Assembly (NCBI GenBank): GCA_024685775.1
Contig: JAIKVL010000033.1
Location: 7,908 to 71,907 of the forward strand
From: Clostridia bacterium
Lineage (GTDB): Bacteria > Bacillota > Clostridia > Christensenellales > CAG-1252
DNA length: 64,000 bases
Reading direction: 5' to 3'
Shown: positions 2,342 to 58,006 of the stretch, one piece after another
How the letters are laid out: each line of letters starts with the position of its first letter
Position numbering within the stretch: position 1 is the stretch's first letter
Notes under the pieces: model-generated
What the model saw: only the letters and a program-made list of their open reading frames with translations
The model's database searches: none
Told to the model about the DNA's origin: nothing
Made by a program: the position numbers and the translations under genes

Positions 2342-3778
2342 AGTCAAACTCCTTTTTTCTTTGCCGCCCGCAAGCGGCGCGTTGGTTACCGTTTTTCTTT
2401 CGCCCGTTATCGGCGGGCTGCTCTTTTACTAATTCGTCATCCTGAGCTGCGAGAGTATCGAGCGCGCCGAAGGATCTTATCCGCATTACACTTTCGTCAT
2501 CCTGAGCTGCGAGAGTATCGAGCGCGCCGAAGGATCTTATCCATTTCTCGTCGCTTCTTGCCGCTTCTTGCCGCTTCGCCTTAGGGGATTCCTCGACGAC
2601 GGCGCTTTTGCGCCTACTCGGAATGACGTGCCTTTTTTCATTCGTCATGTCGAGCAAAGTCGAGACATCTCATCCGCGAAACCCTGCTTTCTCAACCCGC
2701 CTTGCGGCGGTAAACAGGTAATCGGCGATTTCTCCGCTCCGCTTCGCTTCGGTCGAAATGACAATGTTGCTTTCCTGCGCAGTTTCTTTATTTGTCATCC
2801 TGCACCGAAGGTCCGCGTAGAGGCAAAGCCTCATAGCGAGCCTGTCGAAGGATCTCATCCGCGAAGCCTGTTTCTCGAAGCCTCTCACACGCGAGCGTGT
2901 GCGGGCGCATCGCCTGCAAACGCGAAAGCCGCTACAAGAGAGAACGGAAAATTCCGAGTCCTTGCGCGGTCGCTGCTTTTCATATACCGATTTCGAGGCG
3001 GGGACGCCGCCCGCATTGAGAGCCGCCGCTCTTTTTATTTTATAAAAAGGGAGCCGCATTTCTCGCCGCATTTATATAATAATATATAGCGCGCCCGATT
3101 TCAATACCCCTCGCGAAATTTCTCCGATTTTTTGCCGATTTGTAAGCATCGCTTTGCAAAAATAGCGGGGTTTGTAATAGTTTTTTAACGAAATTTTCAG
3201 AAATATTAAGAAAATTTAATCATTGAGAGGAACCGAAACACCCCCCGCGGGAAGCCGAACCCCCTTAAACCAAACGCCGAATCAAAGCGAGTAATCGGCG
3301 ATTTCTCGACAAGCTCGAAATGACATTGGAACTTTGCCTGCGCAGACACTTTCTGTTCCGTCATCCCGAGGAATTCGAGGGATCGCCTTGCATTCTCCCC
3401 CCGCAAAGCCATGCTTTTTCAACCCGCCTTGCGGCGGTAAGCAGTAATCGGCGATTTCTCCGCTCCGCTTCGCTTCGGTCGAAATGACAAGATAGGCTTA
3501 GTCCGTGCTGTCATTTTCTTTTTTGTCATCCTGAGCCGCCGTCAGGCGCGCCGAAGGATCGCCTTGTACCGCCACCCGCAAAGTCCTGCTTCTCCGTCCG
3601 CCCTTCGGCGGTAAGCAGTAATCGGCGATTTCTCGACAAGCTCGAAATGACATTGGAACTTTGCCTGCGCAGACACTTTCTGTTCCGTCTTCCCGAGGAA
3701 TTCGAAGGATCGCCCTGTACCGTTACCCGCAAAGCCGCGCCTTCAAAAATTGCAAGCATTATTCGCACATTACAAGAA
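2342..3778 (+). repeat. Intergenic array of modular hairpin repeats, left of the GIY-YIG gene
   Basis: There are repeated modules, all in the same orientation. H1 is CCGCC-loop-GGCGG. L is GCG-ATTTC...GAAAT-GACA (copies starting at 2719, 3292, 3445, 3619). M is the inverted repeat ATGACA...TGTCAT around a 25-35 nt spacer that often carries CTGCGCAG. R is GTC-ATCCT...AGGAT-C with variants. A 50-bp identical core occurs twice with a 60-bp period (2433-2482 and 2493-2542). An AT-rich island with promoter-like hexamers lies at about 3040-3230. Confidence 0.85.
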
Positions 3779-4072
3779 TTAGTCTTCTTCCGTAAACGTT
3801 TCGGATAAATCCTTCCAAAACGGATTATTTTCATTGATAAGAGCGACTTTTTTCTCGCGACGCCAGCCTTTCAGTTGCTTCTCCCTCGAAATGGCGGCAT
3901 ACGCATCGCCGCAGGATTCCGCATACACGAGTTTATGAACGGCGTAACGCTTGGTAAACCCCTCGATCGCGCCGCTTTTATGCTCCGCAATACGACGAAT
4001 CAGATCATTCGTCACCCCGATATAAAGCGTTCGATTGTTTTCACTTGCCAAGATATAGACGTAATAATTCAT
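3779..4072 (-). CDS. GIY-YIG nuclease family protein (small UPF0213/YhbQ-SLX1-like type)
   Basis: The translation MNYYVYILASENNRTLYIGVTNDLIRRIAEHKSG...KRYAVHKLVYAE...AISREKQLKGWRREKK carries the GIY/YIG, Arg and Glu motifs of the family. ATG 4072 follows a purine-rich GGTGGGGAAGAAA. The ORF track starts 12 nt upstream at GTG 4084. Confidence 0.85.
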   Translation of the reverse strand: MNYYVYILASENNRTLYIGVTNDLIRRIAEHKSGAIEGFTKRYAVHKLVYAESCGDAYAAISREKQLKGWRREKKVALINENNPFWKDLSETFTEED

Positions 4073-4626
4073 TTTCTTCCCCACCCGCCCTGCGGCGGTA
4101 AACAGTAATCGGCGATTTCTCCGCTCCGCTTCGCTTCGGTCGAAATGACATGTAGCTTTCCTGCGCAGTTTCTTTATTTGTCATCCTGAGCCGCGAGAAC
4201 ATCGAGCGTGCCGAAGGATCGCCTTGTACTTTCGACCCGCAAAACCCTGCTTCTCATCCCGCTCTTTGAGCGGTAAACAGGTAATCGGCGATTTCTCGAC
4301 AAGTTCGAAATGACATTAAAACTATGCCTGCGCAGACAAATTCTATTCCGTCATCCCGAGGAATTCGAGGGATCGCCTTGTACATCGACCCGCAAAGCCA
4401 TGCTTCTCCGTCCGCCCTATGAGCGGTAAGCAGGTAATCGGCGATTTCTCCGCTCCGCTTCGCTTCGGTCGAAATGACAAGATAGGCTTAGTCCGTGCTG
4501 TGACTTCCTCTTTTGTCATCCTGAGCCACGAAAGTATCGAGCGTGTCGAAGGATCGCCTTGTACTCTCACCCGCGAAGCTCTGCCTCTCCGTCCGTGCTA
4601 CGGGCGCTATTTGATCTTATGCGATT
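4073..4626 (+). repeat. Intergenic array of the same modular hairpin repeats, right of the GIY-YIG gene
   Basis: Three head-to-tail H1-L-M-R units have L modules starting at 4106, 4282 and 4435 (spacing 176 and 153 bp). This mirrors the 153/174 bp spacing left of the gene. The H1 variant CCGCTC-TTT-GAGCGG at 4259-4273 shows compensatory changes. Confidence 0.85.
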
Positions 4627-6789
4627 TTATGCAATGGTATAGGAGAAATACGTAATCAACCCATCAAACGACACCGACGCGTAGAACGTCCCCTTTTCGG
4701 AGGAGTCGTAGCCGCCGATCATATCGTAGGTCAAAAAGACGGGCGTCGAAGAGCCGTCGGAATAGTTTGCGTAAAGGACGTAGCCGGAAATATCGAGCCC
4801 TTCGCCGACCGCGAAGGTCGTCTTGCCGCCCGATGTATCCACCCAAATTCCGCTCAAAGTGATTTCCTGCATACGGACGACGACCCAGCCGAAATCGCTG
4901 AATCCTAGGTAAGAAACGCGGATAACGTAGCTATCCGGAACGTTTGGATCGAAGGCAGGGTCATCGAAAGAGTACGTTGCACCGAGAGGGATTAACGCCG
5001 CAAGCGTCTTTTCCTCCTGCCGCTTTCCGCCCTCGTAATCGAGGACGACGACGCATTTTTCGGGATCGAACGCTTCGCCGACGTCATACTCCTGCATTTT
5101 GATCGAAAGCCCCGTTATGCCGAGGACGGTGTCGTCCGCGACGTTTACGTTATATTCGAGCGACTTGCCTTTATAGCGGATCGTGATGCGCTGCGAGCCC
5201 ACGACGCCCGGAGAAAAACCTTCGATCGAGACGGCGGCATTCGATAAAAGGACGCTGCCCGTCCGCGCGCCGTAACCGAATTCGAGCGTCAGCCGCGCGC
5301 CCGAGGGGATGACGAGCGCAGGCGAGGTCTTATAGGTCTTATCTTCCCATCCGGTCAAGCCCGTTATTGCCGTCAAAACGTCGGAATCATCGGGCGAAAC
5401 GACGGTTACGGACTGCGTCGCCGAAAAGCCTTGATAGGTCAAAGTCAGATCCTGCAATCCGGGCGTGTTCGGGTCGTAACCCGAGACGTATTCCGCAGTC
5501 AACGGGACGCTTTTATGCGAATAACCGTAGCCGTATTCGACCATCAGCGTGTAGTCGCCGAAAGTGAGGGCGTCACCGAGGTAAAGCCGCCCGTCCGCCG
5601 CGCCGCGCCAAAGCGTCGAAAGCCCCGTGATCCGCTTCGAATCCTCGTTTGAGACGACGCGAACGGTCGCGGATTCGGAGATCCCCATATAGGAGATCGT
5701 GAATTCGACTTGCTCACCGGGCGAATCGAACGGTCCTTTGGTAACGACCATTTCTTCCGTCAGCGCCACGCGCACCGAACCCGTGTAATATCGGTACTTA
5801 ACGCTTAAAAATGCCTCTTCGAGATCGGGCTTTTCGCCGACTTTATAGACGCGCTTCGGCAAAATCAGCTCCATATTTTCGATCGCGTACTGCTCGCCTT
5901 TCAGATACGCTTCTGCGTTGAAAACGAAGGTTTTTCCGCGATAAGATAGTTCCAAAGTCGTCTGGTAATTTTCCGCTCGCTCTTCGAGCCAAGAAGTCTT
6001 GATCTCGACGTATTCGTTATAAATCGAGACGTTTTCCGTCGTCAGATCGGTGTAGGTGACGAGGATGGTCCCGTTTCCCATAACGTTCTCTTTGGTCAGC
6101 GGCGCGCCCTGCTCCGCATAGAGTTTTCCCGCCGCTTCAAGGGATTTTATGACCTTCATTACCGTGTAACGGTAAACGCAGGAAATCGAGCCTCGGAAAG
6201 TCACCGTCGCTTCATATTCCCCGCTCTTCGCGCTGTCGAATCCCGAGATCATATCGGGCGTAATCGGGAAGGATCGGAAGGGCTTATCTTTATATGACAA
6301 GTCCAATATTCCACCTGTGGAAATAGCTTCGTTCGGCTCGTATTCCGTCTTCATACTGCCGACCCGTACCGAACATTCGGTTTCTTCCAACGAGACGACG
6401 AGGACGGTCGCGGGGATCGAACGATTTTTATAAGTGACCGTAACGTCCTTTTCGCCCCGCTCCTGTGTGTCGAACGGCGAAAGCATATAAGGCTTTACTT
6501 CGACGCGCGTTTTCTTCCCGGATCGCCGCGTAACGACGAGGAAAAGCCCGCCGTCATACTCTTCTCCCGCGAGGAGGACGGCGCCGCCTTCGGCGGTCAC
6601 GCTCTTGATCGGGAGCGTCAAGCCGAGCGAAAGCCCCAGCGCCAAAACGACGAGAAAAGCGCAGATTATCGCGATCGCGACGATCTTTTGCTTCGCCGTC
6701 CAAGCGGCGAAGAACTCTTTGATTTTTATCAGCTTTTCCCGTATTTTCATTTCAGTCCGTTTTACTCTTTTGCTCCGATTTCTCAGCAT
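4627..6789 (-). CDS. Membrane-anchored envelope protein made of bacterial Ig-like (Big_3-like) repeats
   Basis: This is a 720-aa ORF with an N-terminal TM (IVAIAIICAFLVVLALGLSLGL). It has repeated ~85-aa units ending in G(F/Y)DS..G.y...V.Y.G.s....V.V, for example SGFDSAKSGEYEATVTFRG and SGYDPNTPGLQDLTLTYQGFSATQSVTVV. The start is uncertain (ATG 6789 or 6750). Confidence 0.8.
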   Translation of the reverse strand: MLRNRSKRVKRTEMKIREKLIKIKEFFAAWTAKQKIVAIAIICAFLVVLALGLSLGLTLPIKSVTAEGGAVLLAGEEYDGGLFLVVTRRSGKKTRVEVKPYMLSPFDTQERGEKDVTVTYKNRSIPATVLVVSLEETECSVRVGSMKTEYEPNEAISTGGILDLSYKDKPFRSFPITPDMISGFDSAKSGEYEATVTFRGSISCVYRYTVMKVIKSLEAAGKLYAEQGAPLTKENVMGNGTILVTYTDLTTENVSIYNEYVEIKTSWLEERAENYQTTLELSYRGKTFVFNAEAYLKGEQYAIENMELILPKRVYKVGEKPDLEEAFLSVKYRYYTGSVRVALTEEMVVTKGPFDSPGEQVEFTISYMGISESATVRVVSNEDSKRITGLSTLWRGAADGRLYLGDALTFGDYTLMVEYGYGYSHKSVPLTAEYVSGYDPNTPGLQDLTLTYQGFSATQSVTVVSPDDSDVLTAITGLTGWEDKTYKTSPALVIPSGARLTLEFGYGARTGSVLLSNAAVSIEGFSPGVVGSQRITIRYKGKSLEYNVNVADDTVLGITGLSIKMQEYDVGEAFDPEKCVVVLDYEGGKRQEEKTLAALIPLGATYSFDDPAFDPNVPDSYVIRVSYLGFSDFGWVVVRMQEITLSGIWVDTSGGKTTFAVGEGLDISGYVLYANYSDGSSTPVFLTYDMIGGYDSSEKGTFYASVSFDGLITYFSYTIA

Positions 6790-53863: not shown

Positions 53864-54556
53864 TCAATACCCTCTGAGTCCGACCGTCGGCACGACTTTC
53901 GAGACTTCGGCGAGGAACTTTTTCGCCTCGGCTTCGGGGAGTTCGTGTAAAAGCCCTTGGGTCAGATTATTTTCTCCGTCTTTGAATTTCTGAATAAAGA
54001 AGCGTTTCGCGCCGCGAACGATCTCCGCGATCGCCGCGAAGTTTTTCTCGCTGTGGAATTCCGCGATCGCCGTCGTCCGAAACTCGTACTCGATCGGAGA
54101 ATTTTTCAAAAGTTCCACGCTCGATTTGACTCGTTCGAGGAGCGCGGGACTTTCCACGCCGATGACTTCGGCGTAACCCGCGAAATCGCTCTTGATATCC
54201 ATCGCCACGTAATCGAGAAGCCCCTCTCCGATCAATTCTTCGAGAAGGGCGGGGTTCGTTCCGTTGGAATCGAGCTTGACCTTATAGCCGAGCGCGCGCA
54301 CGCGTTTGATAAAATCTTTGAGGTCGGATTGCAGCGTCGGTTCGCCCCCCGTTATGCAGACGGCGTCCACAAGCCCTTTTCTCTTATTCAGATAGTCGAA
54401 CACCTCGCTTTCGGGGATCTCCGCCGCGCCGCCCGTAACGAGAATCGCGTTATGGCAAAACGGACAGCGAAAATTGCAGCCCGGCGTAAACACCGTGCAG
54501 GAAATATAGCCGTCGTAATCCACCATGGAAAACTTTTCCATTCCGCAAATCTTCAT
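53864..54556 (-). CDS. nrdG: Anaerobic ribonucleoside-triphosphate reductase activating protein (radical SAM)
   Basis: ATG 54556 is preceded by AAGGAGAA. The translation begins MKICGMEKFSMVDYDGYISCTVFTPGCNFRCPFCHN. The ORF track starts at 54682. Confidence 0.9.
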   Translation of the reverse strand: MKICGMEKFSMVDYDGYISCTVFTPGCNFRCPFCHNAILVTGGAAEIPESEVFDYLNKRKGLVDAVCITGGEPTLQSDLKDFIKRVRALGYKVKLDSNGTNPALLEELIGEGLLDYVAMDIKSDFAGYAEVIGVESPALLERVKSSVELLKNSPIEYEFRTTAIAEFHSEKNFAAIAEIVRGAKRFFIQKFKDGENNLTQGLLHELPEAEAKKFLAEVSKVVPTVGLRGY

Positions 54557-54621
54557 TTCTTCTCCTTTTGCGCCCGAACCTCGGGGGAACAAAAAAGGGC
54601 GGATACCGCCCTTTCCCTTTT

Positions 54622-55545
54622 TTATTTTAAGGCGTCGATATAACTCGCCGCGGCGATCGCCGCGACCGATCCGTCCGCGCAAGCGGTCGTCACCTGTCGG
54701 ATCTTTTTCGATCGGCAGTCTCCCGCGACGAAAAGCCCCGCGGTCTTCGTCATCGTGTCTTCGCCCGCGAGGACGTAGCCTCCGCGATCGAGATCGACGA
54801 GGTTTTTGATCGCGTCGTTATTCGGGACTTGCCCGACTGCGATAAAGCAACCTTTGACCTTATACTCTTTGATGCTCTTGTCCTTCGTGTTTTCGAAAAC
54901 CAATCCCGCAAGTTCGCCCTTCTCGTTCGTCAGGAACTTTTGAAGGGAAAGATTATGCTCGTAAGAAACGTTTTCGCGCGCGAGGACGGCGTCTACCATC
55001 GCTTTTTCGCCGAAGAAACGGTCGAAGAGCGTGCAGATATAGACGTGACGGCAGCAATTCGAAAGAAACATCGTGTAGGAAAGAGCGGTATTCGCGTCGC
55101 CGATCATGACGACGTCTTCGCCCGTAAAGAACGCGCCGTCGCAAAGGGCGCAATAGGAAACGCCTTTGCCGATGAGTTCTTCCTCGCCTTGGACGCCGAT
55201 ATGGCGATGCTTCGCCCCCGTTGCCCAAATCACGGCTTTCGCTTCGAATTCGTTGTACTCGCAACGGACGAGGAAATCCCCTTCCCCTCTTTTTACGACT
55301 TCCGAAACGCGGTCGAGTTCGAGTTCCGCGCCGAACGCGGTCATTTGCTCGAACATTTTATCCGCGAGATCGCTTCCAGAGGACGCTTGCACCGTCGGGA
55401 AATTCTCGATACGCGGAGAGTTGGACATTTGCCCGCCGATGGTTTCCGCTTCGACGACGAGGACGCTTTTTCCTGCGCGGAGCGCGTAGGTCGCCGCGCT
55501 CATTCCGGCGGGACCCGCTCCTATGATAACGATATCGTATTTCAT
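54622..55545 (-). CDS. Thioredoxin-reductase-like flavoprotein with a CxxC site but degenerate NADPH-binding motifs
   Basis: YDIVIIGAGPAGMSAA is the FAD motif, VSYCALCDGAFF the redox CxxC, and GLFVAGDC follows. Where E. coli TrxB has VIGGGNTAVEEA and HLIHRRDGFRA, this protein has MIGDANTALSYT and YICTLFDRFFG. Its start overlaps the nrdD stop (TAATG). Confidence 0.8.
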   Translation of the reverse strand: MKYDIVIIGAGPAGMSAATYALRAGKSVLVVEAETIGGQMSNSPRIENFPTVQASSGSDLADKMFEQMTAFGAELELDRVSEVVKRGEGDFLVRCEYNEFEAKAVIWATGAKHRHIGVQGEEELIGKGVSYCALCDGAFFTGEDVVMIGDANTALSYTMFLSNCCRHVYICTLFDRFFGEKAMVDAVLARENVSYEHNLSLQKFLTNEKGELAGLVFENTKDKSIKEYKVKGCFIAVGQVPNNDAIKNLVDLDRGGYVLAGEDTMTKTAGLFVAGDCRSKKIRQVTTACADGSVAAIAAASYIDALK

Positions 55546-57926
55546 TATTTCTTGCAGTTTTCGATGAAGCCTTTGATCTCGCTGGCGTTCTCGAAACGAT
55601 CGTAGCCGCCCGCCGCGTTCGGGACGAGGAGAGTCGGAGCCTTGCGAACGCCCATCTTGACGGTTTGATCTTTATTGTCTTCCGCGTCGATCGGGGTGTA
55701 CGCGATGCCCGCTTTGTCGAGCATCATTTTGCTCATTTTGCAGTTCGGGCAGGTCTTGGTCGTAAAGAGGATCATCCCTTCCGCCGCCGCGGCTTGCGCT
55801 TCTTTCGCGACCGCGCCTTCCGCGTCGTTTTTGACGTCGCCGCCCTTAAAGACCGAACCCGCGATATCGTAGGTCTTTCTGTGTTTGAACTCTTCGACCT
55901 TGCCGTCGTTCCAGTTTTGGACGGGGCGATAGTAGCCCGTGATACGGCTGTACACTTCGGTGGATCTGCCGCAGACGGGGCACTTTCTGACCTCGCCGGA
56001 GAGATATCCGTGTTCGGCGCAGATCGAGTACGTCGGGCTCATCGTGTAGTACGGAAGCTTATAGTTCTCCGCGATCTTTCTGACGAGGTTCGCCGCCGCC
56101 TGCCAGCTGTCGAGTTTCTGACCGAGGAAAGCGTGGAAGACCGTTCCGGAGGTGTAAAGCGTTTGGAGATCGTCTTGGATATCCAAAGCGTCGAAGATAT
56201 CGGAAGTAAAGCCGACGGGAAGGTGCGAGCTGTTGGTGTAGTACGGAGTCGCGTCTCCTTCCGAAGCGGTGATGATATCGGGGAATCTCTTCTTGTCGTG
56301 CTTCGCGAGGCGATACGCGGTGGATTCCGCGGGAGTCGCTTCGAGGTTATAAAGATCGCCGTACTCTTCTTGATAATCGGAGAGCTTTTCTCTCATAAAG
56401 TTCAAGGTCTTCTTCGTAAACTCCTGCGCCTCTTTGTGCGTCAGATCCTTACCGATCCAATTCGCGTTCAGGCAGGCTTCGTTCATACCGACGAGACCGA
56501 TCGTCGAGAAGTGGTTATTGAAGGTGCCGAGGTAACGCTTCGTGTAGGGATACAAGCCTTCGTTCAAAAGCTTGGTGATGACATTTCTTTTGATCTTCAA
56601 AGAACGCGCCGCGAGATCCATCAAGCGGGTCAATCTTTGGAAATACTCGTCTTCGGTCTTGGAAAGATAGGCGATACGCGGCATATTGATCGTAACGACG
56701 CCGACGCTGCCCGTGCTTTCGCCGCTGCCGAAGAAACCGCCGGACTTTTTCCTGAGCTCGCGGAGATCGAGGCGCAAGCGGCAGCACATCGAACGGACGT
56801 CGGACGGCTCCATATCGCTGTTGATATAGTTGCTGAAATACGGCGTTCCGTACTTTGCGGTCATTTCGAAAAGGAGTTTGTTGTTCTCGGTTTCGGACCA
56901 GTCGAAATTGCGGGTGATCGAATAGGTCGGGATCGGATATTGAAAGCCGCGGCCGTTCGCGTCGCCTTCGATCATGATCTCGATAAAGGCTTTATTGACC
57001 ATCGCCATTTCTTTGACGCAGTCCTTATACTTGAAGTCCATTTCCTTGCCGCCGACGATTGCGTTCAGCTCCGCCATATCGTTCGGAACGACCCAGTCAA
57101 GCGTGATATTCGTAAACGGAGATTGCGTGCCCCAGCGAGAGGGGGTGTTGACGCCGTAAATGAAGGATTGGATGCATTGCTTGGTCTCTTTGTAAGAAAG
57201 GTTATCCACCTTTACGAACGGCGCGAGATAGGTGTCGAACGAGGAGAACGCCTGCGCGCCCGCCCATTCGTTCTGCATAATGCCGAGAAAGTTCACCATT
57301 TGGTTACACAGGGTGGAAAGGTGACCCGCGGGAGCGGAAGTGATCTTTCCGGGGACGCCGCCGAGACCTTCTTGGATCAGCTGCTTCAAGCTCCAACCCG
57401 CGCAATAACCGGTCAGCATCGAAAGGTCGTGGATATGGATATCCGCGTTACGGTGCGCGTCCGCGATCTCGTCGTCATAGATCTCGCTGAGCCAGTAGTT
57501 CGCGGTGACCGCGCCGCTGTTGGAAAGAATCAAACCGCCGACCGAATAGGTCACGGTGCTGTTTTCCTTAACGCGCCAGTCGTTGATCTTCAAATAGTTA
57601 TCGACGGTGGACTTATAGTCGACGAGCGTGGAGCGCATATTACGCACTTTCTCGTGTTGCTTTCTGTAAAGAATGTAACTCTTGGAAACGTCCACGAAGC
57701 TCGCTTGGATCAAGACGACCTCGACGCTGTCCTGAATGTCTTCGACGGTTACGCAATCGTCTTTAACCTTATTCTGGAAATCCGCGCAAACTTTCAGCGC
57801 GATTAAATCAATGATGTCGTCCGTATGCGCGCGGTTGACCGAATCGAATGCTTTTACGATCGCGACTTTGATCTTTCCGAGATCGAAAGGCACGATTTGT
57901 CCGTCTCTTTTCTTTACGTTTAACAT
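55545..57926 (-). CDS. nrdD: Anaerobic (class III) ribonucleoside-triphosphate reductase with an N-terminal ATP-cone and a C-terminal fused glutaredoxin/NrdH-like domain
   Basis: The protein is 793 aa. The ATP-cone is MLNVKKRDGQIVPFDLGKIKVAI. The Zn site and glycyl radical region are CAEHGYLSGEVRKCPVCG...YSRITGYYRPVQNWNDGK. About 40 aa of linker follow, then ILFTTKTCPNCKMSKMMLDKAGIAYTPIDAE...APTLLV. Confidence 0.93.
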   Translation of the reverse strand: MLNVKKRDGQIVPFDLGKIKVAIVKAFDSVNRAHTDDIIDLIALKVCADFQNKVKDDCVTVEDIQDSVEVVLIQASFVDVSKSYILYRKQHEKVRNMRSTLVDYKSTVDNYLKINDWRVKENSTVTYSVGGLILSNSGAVTANYWLSEIYDDEIADAHRNADIHIHDLSMLTGYCAGWSLKQLIQEGLGGVPGKITSAPAGHLSTLCNQMVNFLGIMQNEWAGAQAFSSFDTYLAPFVKVDNLSYKETKQCIQSFIYGVNTPSRWGTQSPFTNITLDWVVPNDMAELNAIVGGKEMDFKYKDCVKEMAMVNKAFIEIMIEGDANGRGFQYPIPTYSITRNFDWSETENNKLLFEMTAKYGTPYFSNYINSDMEPSDVRSMCCRLRLDLRELRKKSGGFFGSGESTGSVGVVTINMPRIAYLSKTEDEYFQRLTRLMDLAARSLKIKRNVITKLLNEGLYPYTKRYLGTFNNHFSTIGLVGMNEACLNANWIGKDLTHKEAQEFTKKTLNFMREKLSDYQEEYGDLYNLEATPAESTAYRLAKHDKKRFPDIITASEGDATPYYTNSSHLPVGFTSDIFDALDIQDDLQTLYTSGTVFHAFLGQKLDSWQAAANLVRKIAENYKLPYYTMSPTYSICAEHGYLSGEVRKCPVCGRSTEVYSRITGYYRPVQNWNDGKVEEFKHRKTYDIAGSVFKGGDVKNDAEGAVAKEAQAAAAEGMILFTTKTCPNCKMSKMMLDKAGIAYTPIDAEDNKDQTVKMGVRKAPTLLVPNAAGGYDRFENASEIKGFIENCKK

Positions 57927-57977: not shown

Positions 57978-58006
57978 AGTATAGCAACCGAACCCGCCTT
58001 TGTCAA
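57978..58006 (-). promoter_or_regulatory. Sigma-70-type promoter for the nrdD operon
   Basis: On the minus strand it reads TTGACA (58006-58001), a 17 nt spacer, then TATACT (57983-57978). Confidence 0.6.

Follow-up and report, generated by a model that had tools for sequence, protein, structure and literature searches.

We analyzed a 64,000-nucleotide stretch of DNA, referred to here as the window, from a Clostridia bacterium of the order Christensenellales (GenBank assembly GCA_024685775.1, contig JAIKVL010000033.1, positions 7,908 to 71,907). It carries a gene for an anaerobic (class III) ribonucleotide reductase (RNR), nrdD, that is extended at its 3' end by a glutaredoxin-like domain; this fusion gene, nrdD-grx, and the redox partner encoded next to it are the subject of the present analysis. 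The fusion gene (55545–57926; like the other genes, the protein features and the promoter-like site of the window given below, on the minus strand) is a single open reading frame (ORF) of 793 aa without an internal stop, ending in a stop codon at 55545–55547. It is followed by a gene for a thioredoxin-reductase-like (TrxR-like) flavoprotein of 307 aa (54622–55545), the ATG of which overlaps the nrdD-grx stop codon (TAATG).

The fusion protein starts with an ATP-cone (residues 3–92, 57651–57920; PF03477, 74.2 bits), which has a predicted local distance difference test score (pLDDT) of approximately 90 in the full-length structural model. The class III RNR catalytic core with the glycyl-radical domain (residues 121–686, 55869–57566) matches PF13597 over profile positions 1–562 of 562 with 640 bits (cut-off 26.2), and the protein passes the curated NCBIfam NrdD models PRK08270 (1136 bits, cut-off 548) and TIGR02487 (530 bits, cut-off 326). 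The closest relatives of the core in the PDB, 4coi and 4u3e of Thermotoga maritima NrdD, are distant (E 7e-45). As the PRK08270 match ends at residue 688 and the alignment with T. maritima NrdD reaches only residue 687, approximately 105 C-terminal residues of the fusion are extra. These comprise an Ala/Glu/Lys-rich linker of ~27 residues (approximately residues 689–715, 55782–55862; pLDDT below 50 over residues 657–715) and a glutaredoxin-like thioredoxin-fold domain of 78 aa (residues 716–793, 55548–55781). The original prediction, made from the letters of the window, had the NrdD frame running past the glycyl-radical region, through an Ala-rich linker, into a thioredoxin-fold segment with a CPNC active site. 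We find the frame to be as described: the peptides YSRITGYYRPVQNWNDGK and ILFTTKTCPNCK...APTLLV lie in the same uninterrupted 793-aa ORF, and the coordinates are correct, positions 55548–55778 corresponding to residues 717–793.

The linker is variable in homologues, both in sequence and in length (5–52 residues, median 29). Approximately half of the fused homologues have at least two cysteines in the region between the NWNDGK motif and CPNC, in arrangements such as CAC, CCC, CxC, CC, and CDCC, and by analogy with class I enzymes, whose C-terminal tails hold shuttle cysteines, these may act as a shuttle pair. In the window the linker contains no cysteine, which indicates that linker cysteines are not essential.

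The thioredoxin-fold assignment of the C-terminal segment is borne out by profile and structure comparison. The Pfam Glutaredoxin family PF00462 matches residues 719–765, scoring 27.2 bits within the full protein and 31.5 bits with segment 717–793 alone (gathering score 22.9). An AlphaFold2 model of the domain based on 30 homologues (pLDDT 87.3) shows a minimal β-α-β-α-β-β-α thioredoxin fold, for which Foldseek identified thioredoxins, mycoredoxin, and glutaredoxins in the PDB at a probability of 1.00 and a template modeling score of approximately 0.7. The redox-active pair, read from the sequence as C726-P-N-C729 (55740–55751), is present as CPNC in 117 of 121 homologues, and Pro764 of the A-P-T motif (55635–55637) occupies the cis-proline position of the thioredoxin fold. 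Both cysteines and the proline of CPNC, as well as A-P at the cis-proline site, are invariant among 30 diverse homologous domains (41–72% identical to that of the window), and the Asn of CPNC and the Thr of A-P-T are kept in at least 90% of them. Across 22 full-length homologues the domain is invariant at F721, T723-K-T-C-P-N-C-K730, A763-P-T765, and other positions.

The domain had been called glutaredoxin/NrdH-like, and the first half of this label stands on the Pfam match and the fold, while the curated models for NrdH and for classical glutaredoxins are both failed. All curated NCBIfam NrdH and glutaredoxin models score at most 31 bits against cut-offs of 66–129. For NrdH-redoxin (TIGR02194) the scores are 21.4 bits with the whole protein and 26.3 bits with the segment, against a cut-off of 85.75; the NrdH signature motifs are absent, and the resemblance to NrdH is restricted to the fold (PDB 1r7h, E 1.4e-4). 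A classical glutathione-dependent glutaredoxin (TIGR02181, 25.6–30.5 bits, cut-off 90) was likewise rejected, and the GGYD sequence of the window, at the place of the GSH-binding GG-x-D region of such glutaredoxins, is not conserved in homologues. Thioredoxin itself does not fit either (PF00085, 19.1 and 23.1 bits against 23.5), the active site being TCPNC and not WCGPC; at approximately 78 residues, the domain lacks the N-terminal β-α unit of thioredoxins.

A search with residues 690–793, limited to proteins of NrdD length, returned 2153 protein clusters; nearly all of the 120 clusters listed among them contain PF03477 and PF13597, and most also PF00462. In a scan of one genome per species, relatives were found in at least 599 species genomes, the best 80 of which are all fused and 73–81% identical to the window protein. 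The database survey for NrdD-Grx fusions that the original prediction had proposed thus recovers the same in-frame fusion in hundreds of independent assemblies. An artificial fusion of nrdD with a separate glutaredoxin gene, through a frameshift in sequencing or assembly, can for practical purposes be set aside, since the same stop-free frame, with variable linkers, recurs in hundreds of assemblies from different studies; these comparative data already refute it, and the fusion is accounted for without any start codon or ribosome-binding context. The hosts of the best 80 fusions are Christensenellaceae, Oscillospiraceae, Acutalibacteraceae, Lachnospiraceae, and uncultured Bacilli represented by metagenome-assembled genomes (MAGs) of gut and rumen origin. 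Three of the four genera of the window's family have the fusion, as do 37 of the 121 sampled genomes of the order and approximately 70 of the 400 genomes sampled from the class. As a separate observation, the nrdD-grx match is in two pieces on one strand in two genomes of the window's genus (G001:C2 20272–22616 and G002:C6 69420–71848; query residues 1–319 and 343/376–793), with a gap of ~120–145 nt that may stem from a frameshift, from a short insertion, or from a fault of the assembly.

The residues expected at a class III active site were located by alignment with T. maritima NrdD. They include the β-A cysteine Cys175 (57402–57404; C125 in T. maritima, HMMER alignment), the finger loop M380-C381-C382-R383 (56778–56789; SCCR, 328–331), Glu529 (56340–56342; E495, proposed to donate the proton in NrdD of the thiol type), a zinc-ribbon-like C636-x2-H639...C649-x2-C652 (55971–56021), which aligns with a Cys-rich stretch, and the glycyl-radical motif R661-I-T-G664-Y665 (55932–55946), which aligns with RIVGY. 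All are invariant in the 22 full-length fused homologues, the cores of which are ~80% identical, and RSMCCRL occurs in 120 of 121 homologues. In those NrdDs of the order that have an MGCR loop, the position of Glu529 is taken by Ile or Leu.

A third active-site cysteine together with this glutamate defines NrdD2, the subtype that uses thioredoxin in Neisseria bacilliformis (PMC4493059), and by that definition the sequence of the window NrdD is of the NrdD2 type. A later analysis regards the glutamate equivalent to E495 as a marker of formate-independent reduction, links the finger-loop Met to formate chemistry, finds this Met absent from the thioredoxin-only subclades, and describes the MCCR majority as compatible with formate or thioredoxin (PMC9669993). 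The comparison with NrdD subclasses that had been suggested therefore gives a divided answer: the third Cys and the Glu of the thiol type are present, and the Met of formate chemistry is retained. The residue pattern allows a thiol route, short of proof, and is also compatible with the use of formate.

The TrxR-like protein encoded downstream keeps the FAD motif and a redox-active C132-A-L-C135 (55141–55152), aligned with CAVC of the NADPH-dependent Firmicute TrxRs 7aaw and 4gcm. Both NADPH-binding motifs (GxGxxA and HRRxxxR) are lost; in the same alignment the degenerate site (55009–55101) reads GDANTA for GGGDSA and TLFDRFFG for HRRDxLRA, and the protein scores below the cut-off of the NADPH-TrxR model (TIGR01292, 289.8 bits against 343.45). 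The lack of these motifs is shared with the clostridial ferredoxin-dependent flavin thioredoxin reductase (FFTR; PDB 6gna, 6gnc), a TrxR-family flavoprotein (PMC10880999). On grounds of similarity we refrained from assigning the window protein to the FFTRs, as it is nearer to the NADPH-dependent Firmicute TrxRs (7aaw, 219 bits; 4gcm, 217 bits) than to FFTR structures (96–116 bits), and the loss of the NADPH site looks to have occurred independently of the FFTRs.

Linkage between the two genes was assessed at 80 fused loci, with 38 loci of unfused NrdD from the order as control. Of the 80 fused loci, 71 have a TrxR-like gene downstream on the same strand, which in 69 begins within 300 nt, and two of the nine fused loci without it stop at a contig edge. 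No TrxR-like gene was found within ~5 kb of NrdD at any of the 38 unfused loci, 26 of which encode MCCR cores with the Glu (45–50% identical to the window) and 12 formate-type MGCR cores without it. The placement of nrdG, the gene for the activase, is variable across fused loci: upstream, downstream, on either strand, or absent from the locus. All 71 neighbors have the CxxC pair, and their nucleotide-binding sites are of several types: 25 are window-like (GDANTA/GDGNxA with TLFD), 32 have GGGNSA with QNL/QDL in place of HRR, nine are canonical (GGGxxA with HRR), and five are other. The constant feature is thus a tethered redoxin with a TrxR-family reductase, and to judge from these motifs the ultimate electron donor seems to differ between lineages. 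The motif type of the window's reductase goes with the NrdD-Grx genes that are most like that of the window.

For the evolutionary history of the fusion a FastTree phylogeny was calculated from the NrdD core alone (residues 101–686, 112 rows). Whether bacterial or viral, the fused genes all fall into a single clade (support 98). Its sister group is the set of unfused MCCR genes from the order (support 99), and the MGCR genes are the outgroup; the core of the window groups with a Christensenella MAG. Among IMG/VR contigs (L142–L188), 27 encode a fused NrdD-Grx, many without the ATP-cone, and approximately 13 close viral relatives (66–82% identity) terminate directly after the glycyl-radical domain. 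The tree requires approximately seven state changes, which fits a single gain and several losses in viral contigs. A complete cassette of nrdG, nrdD-grx, and a TrxR-like gene is present in MT835493.1 (L141), a human fecal sequence that its own record labels as viral ('UNVERIFIED: Bacteriophage sp.'); its reductase (59% identical) is of the window's GDANTA/LFD type. In three viral contigs (L184, L185, and L186) the NrdD match breaks at query residue 381, in the Cys-Cys of the finger loop, with ~600 extra codons in frame, which from the sequence looks like an intein at the catalytic cysteine. A split-gene arrangement is found in Clostridium phage phiCTP1 (L140), where gp45 (2783–3007), a YruB-like glutaredoxin of 74 aa, overlaps the start of gp46 (3001–4761), an MCCR-type nrdD without a cone. 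BLASTP of gp45 against the redoxin domain of the window gave no alignment, so that this precedent, which has the opposite gene order, rests on shared family and position and not on orthology.

The genome to which the window belongs (1.71 Mb, 97% complete) encodes a single NrdD (one PF13597 match), and at this completeness we found neither a class I or class II RNR nor a glycyl-radical enzyme resembling pyruvate formate-lyase (PFL). The fused enzyme must therefore supply all deoxynucleoside triphosphates in this organism, and no obvious formate source is present. The fused domain is the only PF00462 match and the nrd-linked gene the only TrxR homologue of the genome, which also has one free TrxA elsewhere. 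The flavoprotein of the operon is thereby the sole disulfide reductase that we could recognize. No reductase of the ferredoxin:thioredoxin reductase (FTR) type was found in it (PF02943), by which we rejected a dedicated iron-sulfur FTR-type reductase as in methanogens. A PF04262 glutamate-cysteine ligase was likewise not found, and the PF02955 match is an unspecific one to an ATP-grasp protein. The next-best TrxR match is a generic pyridine-nucleotide-disulfide oxidoreductase of 412 aa, which overlaps by a few bases with a glycerol-3-phosphate-oxidase-like gene (L002 1156–3877, G000:C17).

We consider it likely, though with clear reservations, that nrdD-grx encodes a thiol-dependent class III RNR that carries its own reductant and is recharged by the coupled TrxR-like flavoprotein, a scheme in which the domain order, the active-site residues, their conservation, the gene linkage, and the gene content of the genome are observed and we infer every electron-transfer step and the ultimate donor. 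Turnover would leave a disulfide between Cys175 and either Cys381 or Cys382, with Glu529 as the probable proton donor. The CPNC redoxin, on its disordered linker of ~27 residues, would swing in and reduce this disulfide by thiol-disulfide exchange, in its own subunit or in the partner subunit of a dimer; the predicted disorder and the variable length of the linker would suit a swinging arm. The oxidized CPNC would then be re-reduced by the CALC pair of the translationally coupled flavoprotein. As both of its NADPH-binding motifs are lost, the latter probably draws on a donor other than NADPH, and its electrons might come from a low-potential protein donor, for example ferredoxin or flavodoxin. 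That the catalytic residues of the redoxin are invariant while the linker varies freely supports the thiol reading. The original prediction had suggested that the fusion hard-wires a thiol electron path. In favor of such a path are the third Cys and the Glu and the occurrence of the TrxR-like gene at 71 of 80 fused but 0 of 38 unfused loci; against it stand the retained Met and the presence of PFL in a third of the order's genomes with a fusion.

Several observations weigh against a thiol-dependent enzyme with a built-in reductant. Met380 is kept and invariant, which places the protein in the MCCR majority and not in a thioredoxin-only subclade as defined by absence of this residue (PMC9669993). 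Our literature search found no biochemistry on any class III redoxin fusion. The full-length AlphaFold2 model is poor (mean pLDDT 56, core largely below 50), which we attribute to a shallow alignment (22 sequences, ~80% identical), and it lends no structural support to the domain reaching the active site. The only TrxR of the genome presumably also serves the single TrxA. A TrxR-like neighbor is found at none of the 47 viral loci, and viral fused copies without one imply that the partner need not be dedicated; their tethered redoxin could presumably be recharged by a host reductase. A true PFL (TIGR01255 above cut-off) is encoded in 12 of the 37 genomes of the order with a fused NrdD, compared to 37 of the 84 others, only a weak depletion among related genomes. 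At class level the broad PFL-like family PF02901 is found in approximately 54 of 69 fused genomes, and as it matches 332 of 400 genomes overall it is too broad for an anti-correlation with the fusion, which we abandoned. Three genomes of family f106 (G529:C31 946–6194, G482:C65 17719–22967, and G450:C41 10724–15972) have an unfused MCCR+Glu nrdD on the same contig and strand as a true pfl gene, ~1.3 kb away, which suggests that this active-site type may well use formate.

When the fetched loci of the order are divided by NrdD type, PFL accompanies 10 of 12 MGCR, 8 of 24 unfused MCCR, and 12 of 37 fused genes; in these samples, which are small and drawn from related genomes, MCCR-type enzymes, fused or not, are less tied to PFL than the MGCR type. 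In view of the weak depletion we dropped the idea that the fusion is a general mark of organisms without formate and keep it only for the window's genome and for genus g6 (genomes of 0.8–1.0 Mb). In the latter, G140, G195, and G327 have a fused NrdD and no PF02901 match, the test for true PFL among them covering G140 alone, and the congeners G077 and G168 have a formate-type MGCR NrdD together with a true PFL.

Other roles for the tethered domain were weighed against this evidence. It might serve activation, keeping the zinc-ribbon/glycyl-radical domain reduced for NrdG while formate or free thioredoxin drives turnover. Its attachment directly after the zinc-ribbon and glycyl-radical domain would fit such a role, as would the retention of Met380 and the occurrence of PFL in many fused genomes, and E. 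coli NrdD was reportedly found by Padovani et al., in J Biol Chem in 2001, to form its glycyl radical only with the help of the thioredoxin system, which reduces C-terminal cysteines. We nevertheless regard this role as unlikely: the domain is fused only to cores with the third Cys and the Glu and not to MGCR cores, though the order has both, the window's genome is without PFL, and the tight linkage of the reductase gene is explained no better by activation than by turnover. It also appears improbable that formate is the physiological reductant and the domain an accessory redox guard or sensor, for example for the repair of adventitious disulfides after gut anaerobes are exposed to oxygen. The Met of the MCCR loop, the PFL in about a third of the fused genomes, and the adjoining unfused nrdD and pfl genes of family f106 would agree with formate. 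Yet the window's genome has no PFL-like gene at 97% completeness, Glu529, the marker of formate-independent reduction (PMC9669993), is invariant, and at the loci examined the domain is never found on an MGCR NrdD, the type most closely linked to PFL (10 of 12).

A broader function, in which the TrxR-like protein and the tethered redoxin form the general disulfide-reducing system of the cell, housed in the nrd operon and with NrdD as one of many clients, seems very unlikely. The TrxR-like gene is indeed the sole TrxR homologue, one free TrxA is encoded at another site of the genome, and the fusion's viral copies presumably depend on a reductase of the host. A domain tethered at 1:1 with NrdD would however make a poor general carrier, and the reductase gene is linked specifically to fused nrdD; for the NrdD step itself, such a system is compatible with the thiol-dependent mechanism proposed above.

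That mechanism has partial counterparts among known systems. NrdD2 is described as the thioredoxin-dependent class III RNR, represented by N. bacilliformis NrdD with TrxA, TrxB, and NADPH and by the T. maritima structures 4coi and 4u3e (PMC4493059; PMC9669993). The window enzyme is like NrdD2 in its third Cys by the radical Cys, conserved Glu, β-A Cys, and PFL-less organism, and in the expected disulfide that a redoxin would re-reduce; it is unlike NrdD2 in that the redoxin is tethered, the reductase gene is in the operon and without NADPH motifs, and the loop is MCCR and not SCCR. NrdD3 of Methanosarcina barkeri works with an NrdH-like redoxin and a ferredoxin:disulfide reductase, according to PMC5704485 and PMC9176816 (Table 1). 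In this system as in the window, a glutaredoxin-like redoxin and a reductase that is (for the window, probably) independent of pyridine nucleotides are dedicated to a class III RNR and encoded with it. NrdD3 differs, however, in lacking the Glu and the Met (QCCR), in its separate redoxin, and in its iron-sulfur FTR-type reductase in place of a TrxR-family flavoprotein.

Fusion of a glutaredoxin-family domain to an RNR polypeptide is also known from Facklamia ignava, where the glutaredoxin of a Grx-ATP-cone-NrdB protein was shown to reduce its own RNR (PMC6187632). There the domain sits at the N terminus of the radical-generating subunit of a class I enzyme and depends on glutathione, whereas that of the window is C-terminal and on the catalytic subunit of a class III enzyme. 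A 2018 RefSeq survey in the same paper contains a single 'Glutaredoxin:NrdD', from Lachnospiraceae bacterium TWA4 (subclass NrdDd, no ATP-cone; Table S1, PMC6187632). This protein, known from its table entry, is the only Grx-NrdD fusion that we found mentioned in the literature searched, and the notation of the table suggests another domain order. Neither an analysis of RNR extensions (PMC9669993) nor a 2026 review on glycyl-radical enzymes mentions a class III redoxin fusion. NrdDs that depend on a redoxin and RNRs fused to Grx are both known already, and the fusion described here is an uncharacterized variant that is widespread in gut anaerobes.

For the reductase step there are parallels among other small redoxins. 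NrdH-redoxin is reduced by TrxR and serves class Ib RNR, and Cp34 and Cp9 of Clostridium pasteurianum form a TrxR-like/Grx-like pair. In each case a small glutaredoxin-like CxxC protein is reduced by a TrxR-family flavoprotein and not by glutathione, as proposed for the window; unlike NrdH, the domain of the window is covalently attached to the enzyme that it would serve, which is of class III.

Some class III RNRs are driven by formate and others by redoxins, and the largest group by sequence has a double-Cys loop together with the Met and the Glu. A redoxin welded onto exactly this MCCR+Met+Glu core, with a linked reductase gene, is natural evidence for a thiol route, in a clade that covers approximately one in six of the sampled Clostridia genomes as well as gut Bacilli and phage contigs. 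If the built-in thiol reductant is real, it bears on whether the large MCCR+Glu+Met group of class III enzymes uses thiols or formate, and the presence of enzyme and reductant in a single polypeptide offers an easy experimental handle. With the only RNR of the window's organism paired with its only TrxR homologue, the source of the electrons sets how DNA synthesis is coupled to metabolism. More speculatively, and with considerable doubt on our part, the chain might be independent of NAD(P)H throughout, running from a low-potential protein donor to a flavoprotein of TrxR descent, in which the NADPH site was lost separately from its loss in the FFTRs, and on through the tethered redoxin to the active site, with spread between gut lineages partly by phages. 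If so, this flavin-based chain would be a bacterial equivalent of the methanogen system of NrdD3, NrdH, and ferredoxin:disulfide reductase.

Upstream of nrdD-grx, a strong promoter-like site TTGACA-17-TATACT (57978–58006) agrees with 11 of 12 consensus positions and has a TG extension, its assignment being a consensus match only. The nrdG gene (53864–54556) lies two genes downstream of nrdD-grx and encodes a protein with a Radical_SAM domain that matches TIGR02495 (NrdG2) with 218.7 bits against a cut-off of 131. Its likely start is the ATG of MKICGMEK, the listed ORF beginning at a TTG at 54682. Between the stop of the TrxR-like gene (54622) and this likely start (54556), a perfect 9-bp GC-rich palindromic hairpin is present at 54594–54614, which, judged by its sequence and position, might serve the operon as an attenuator or as a site of processing.

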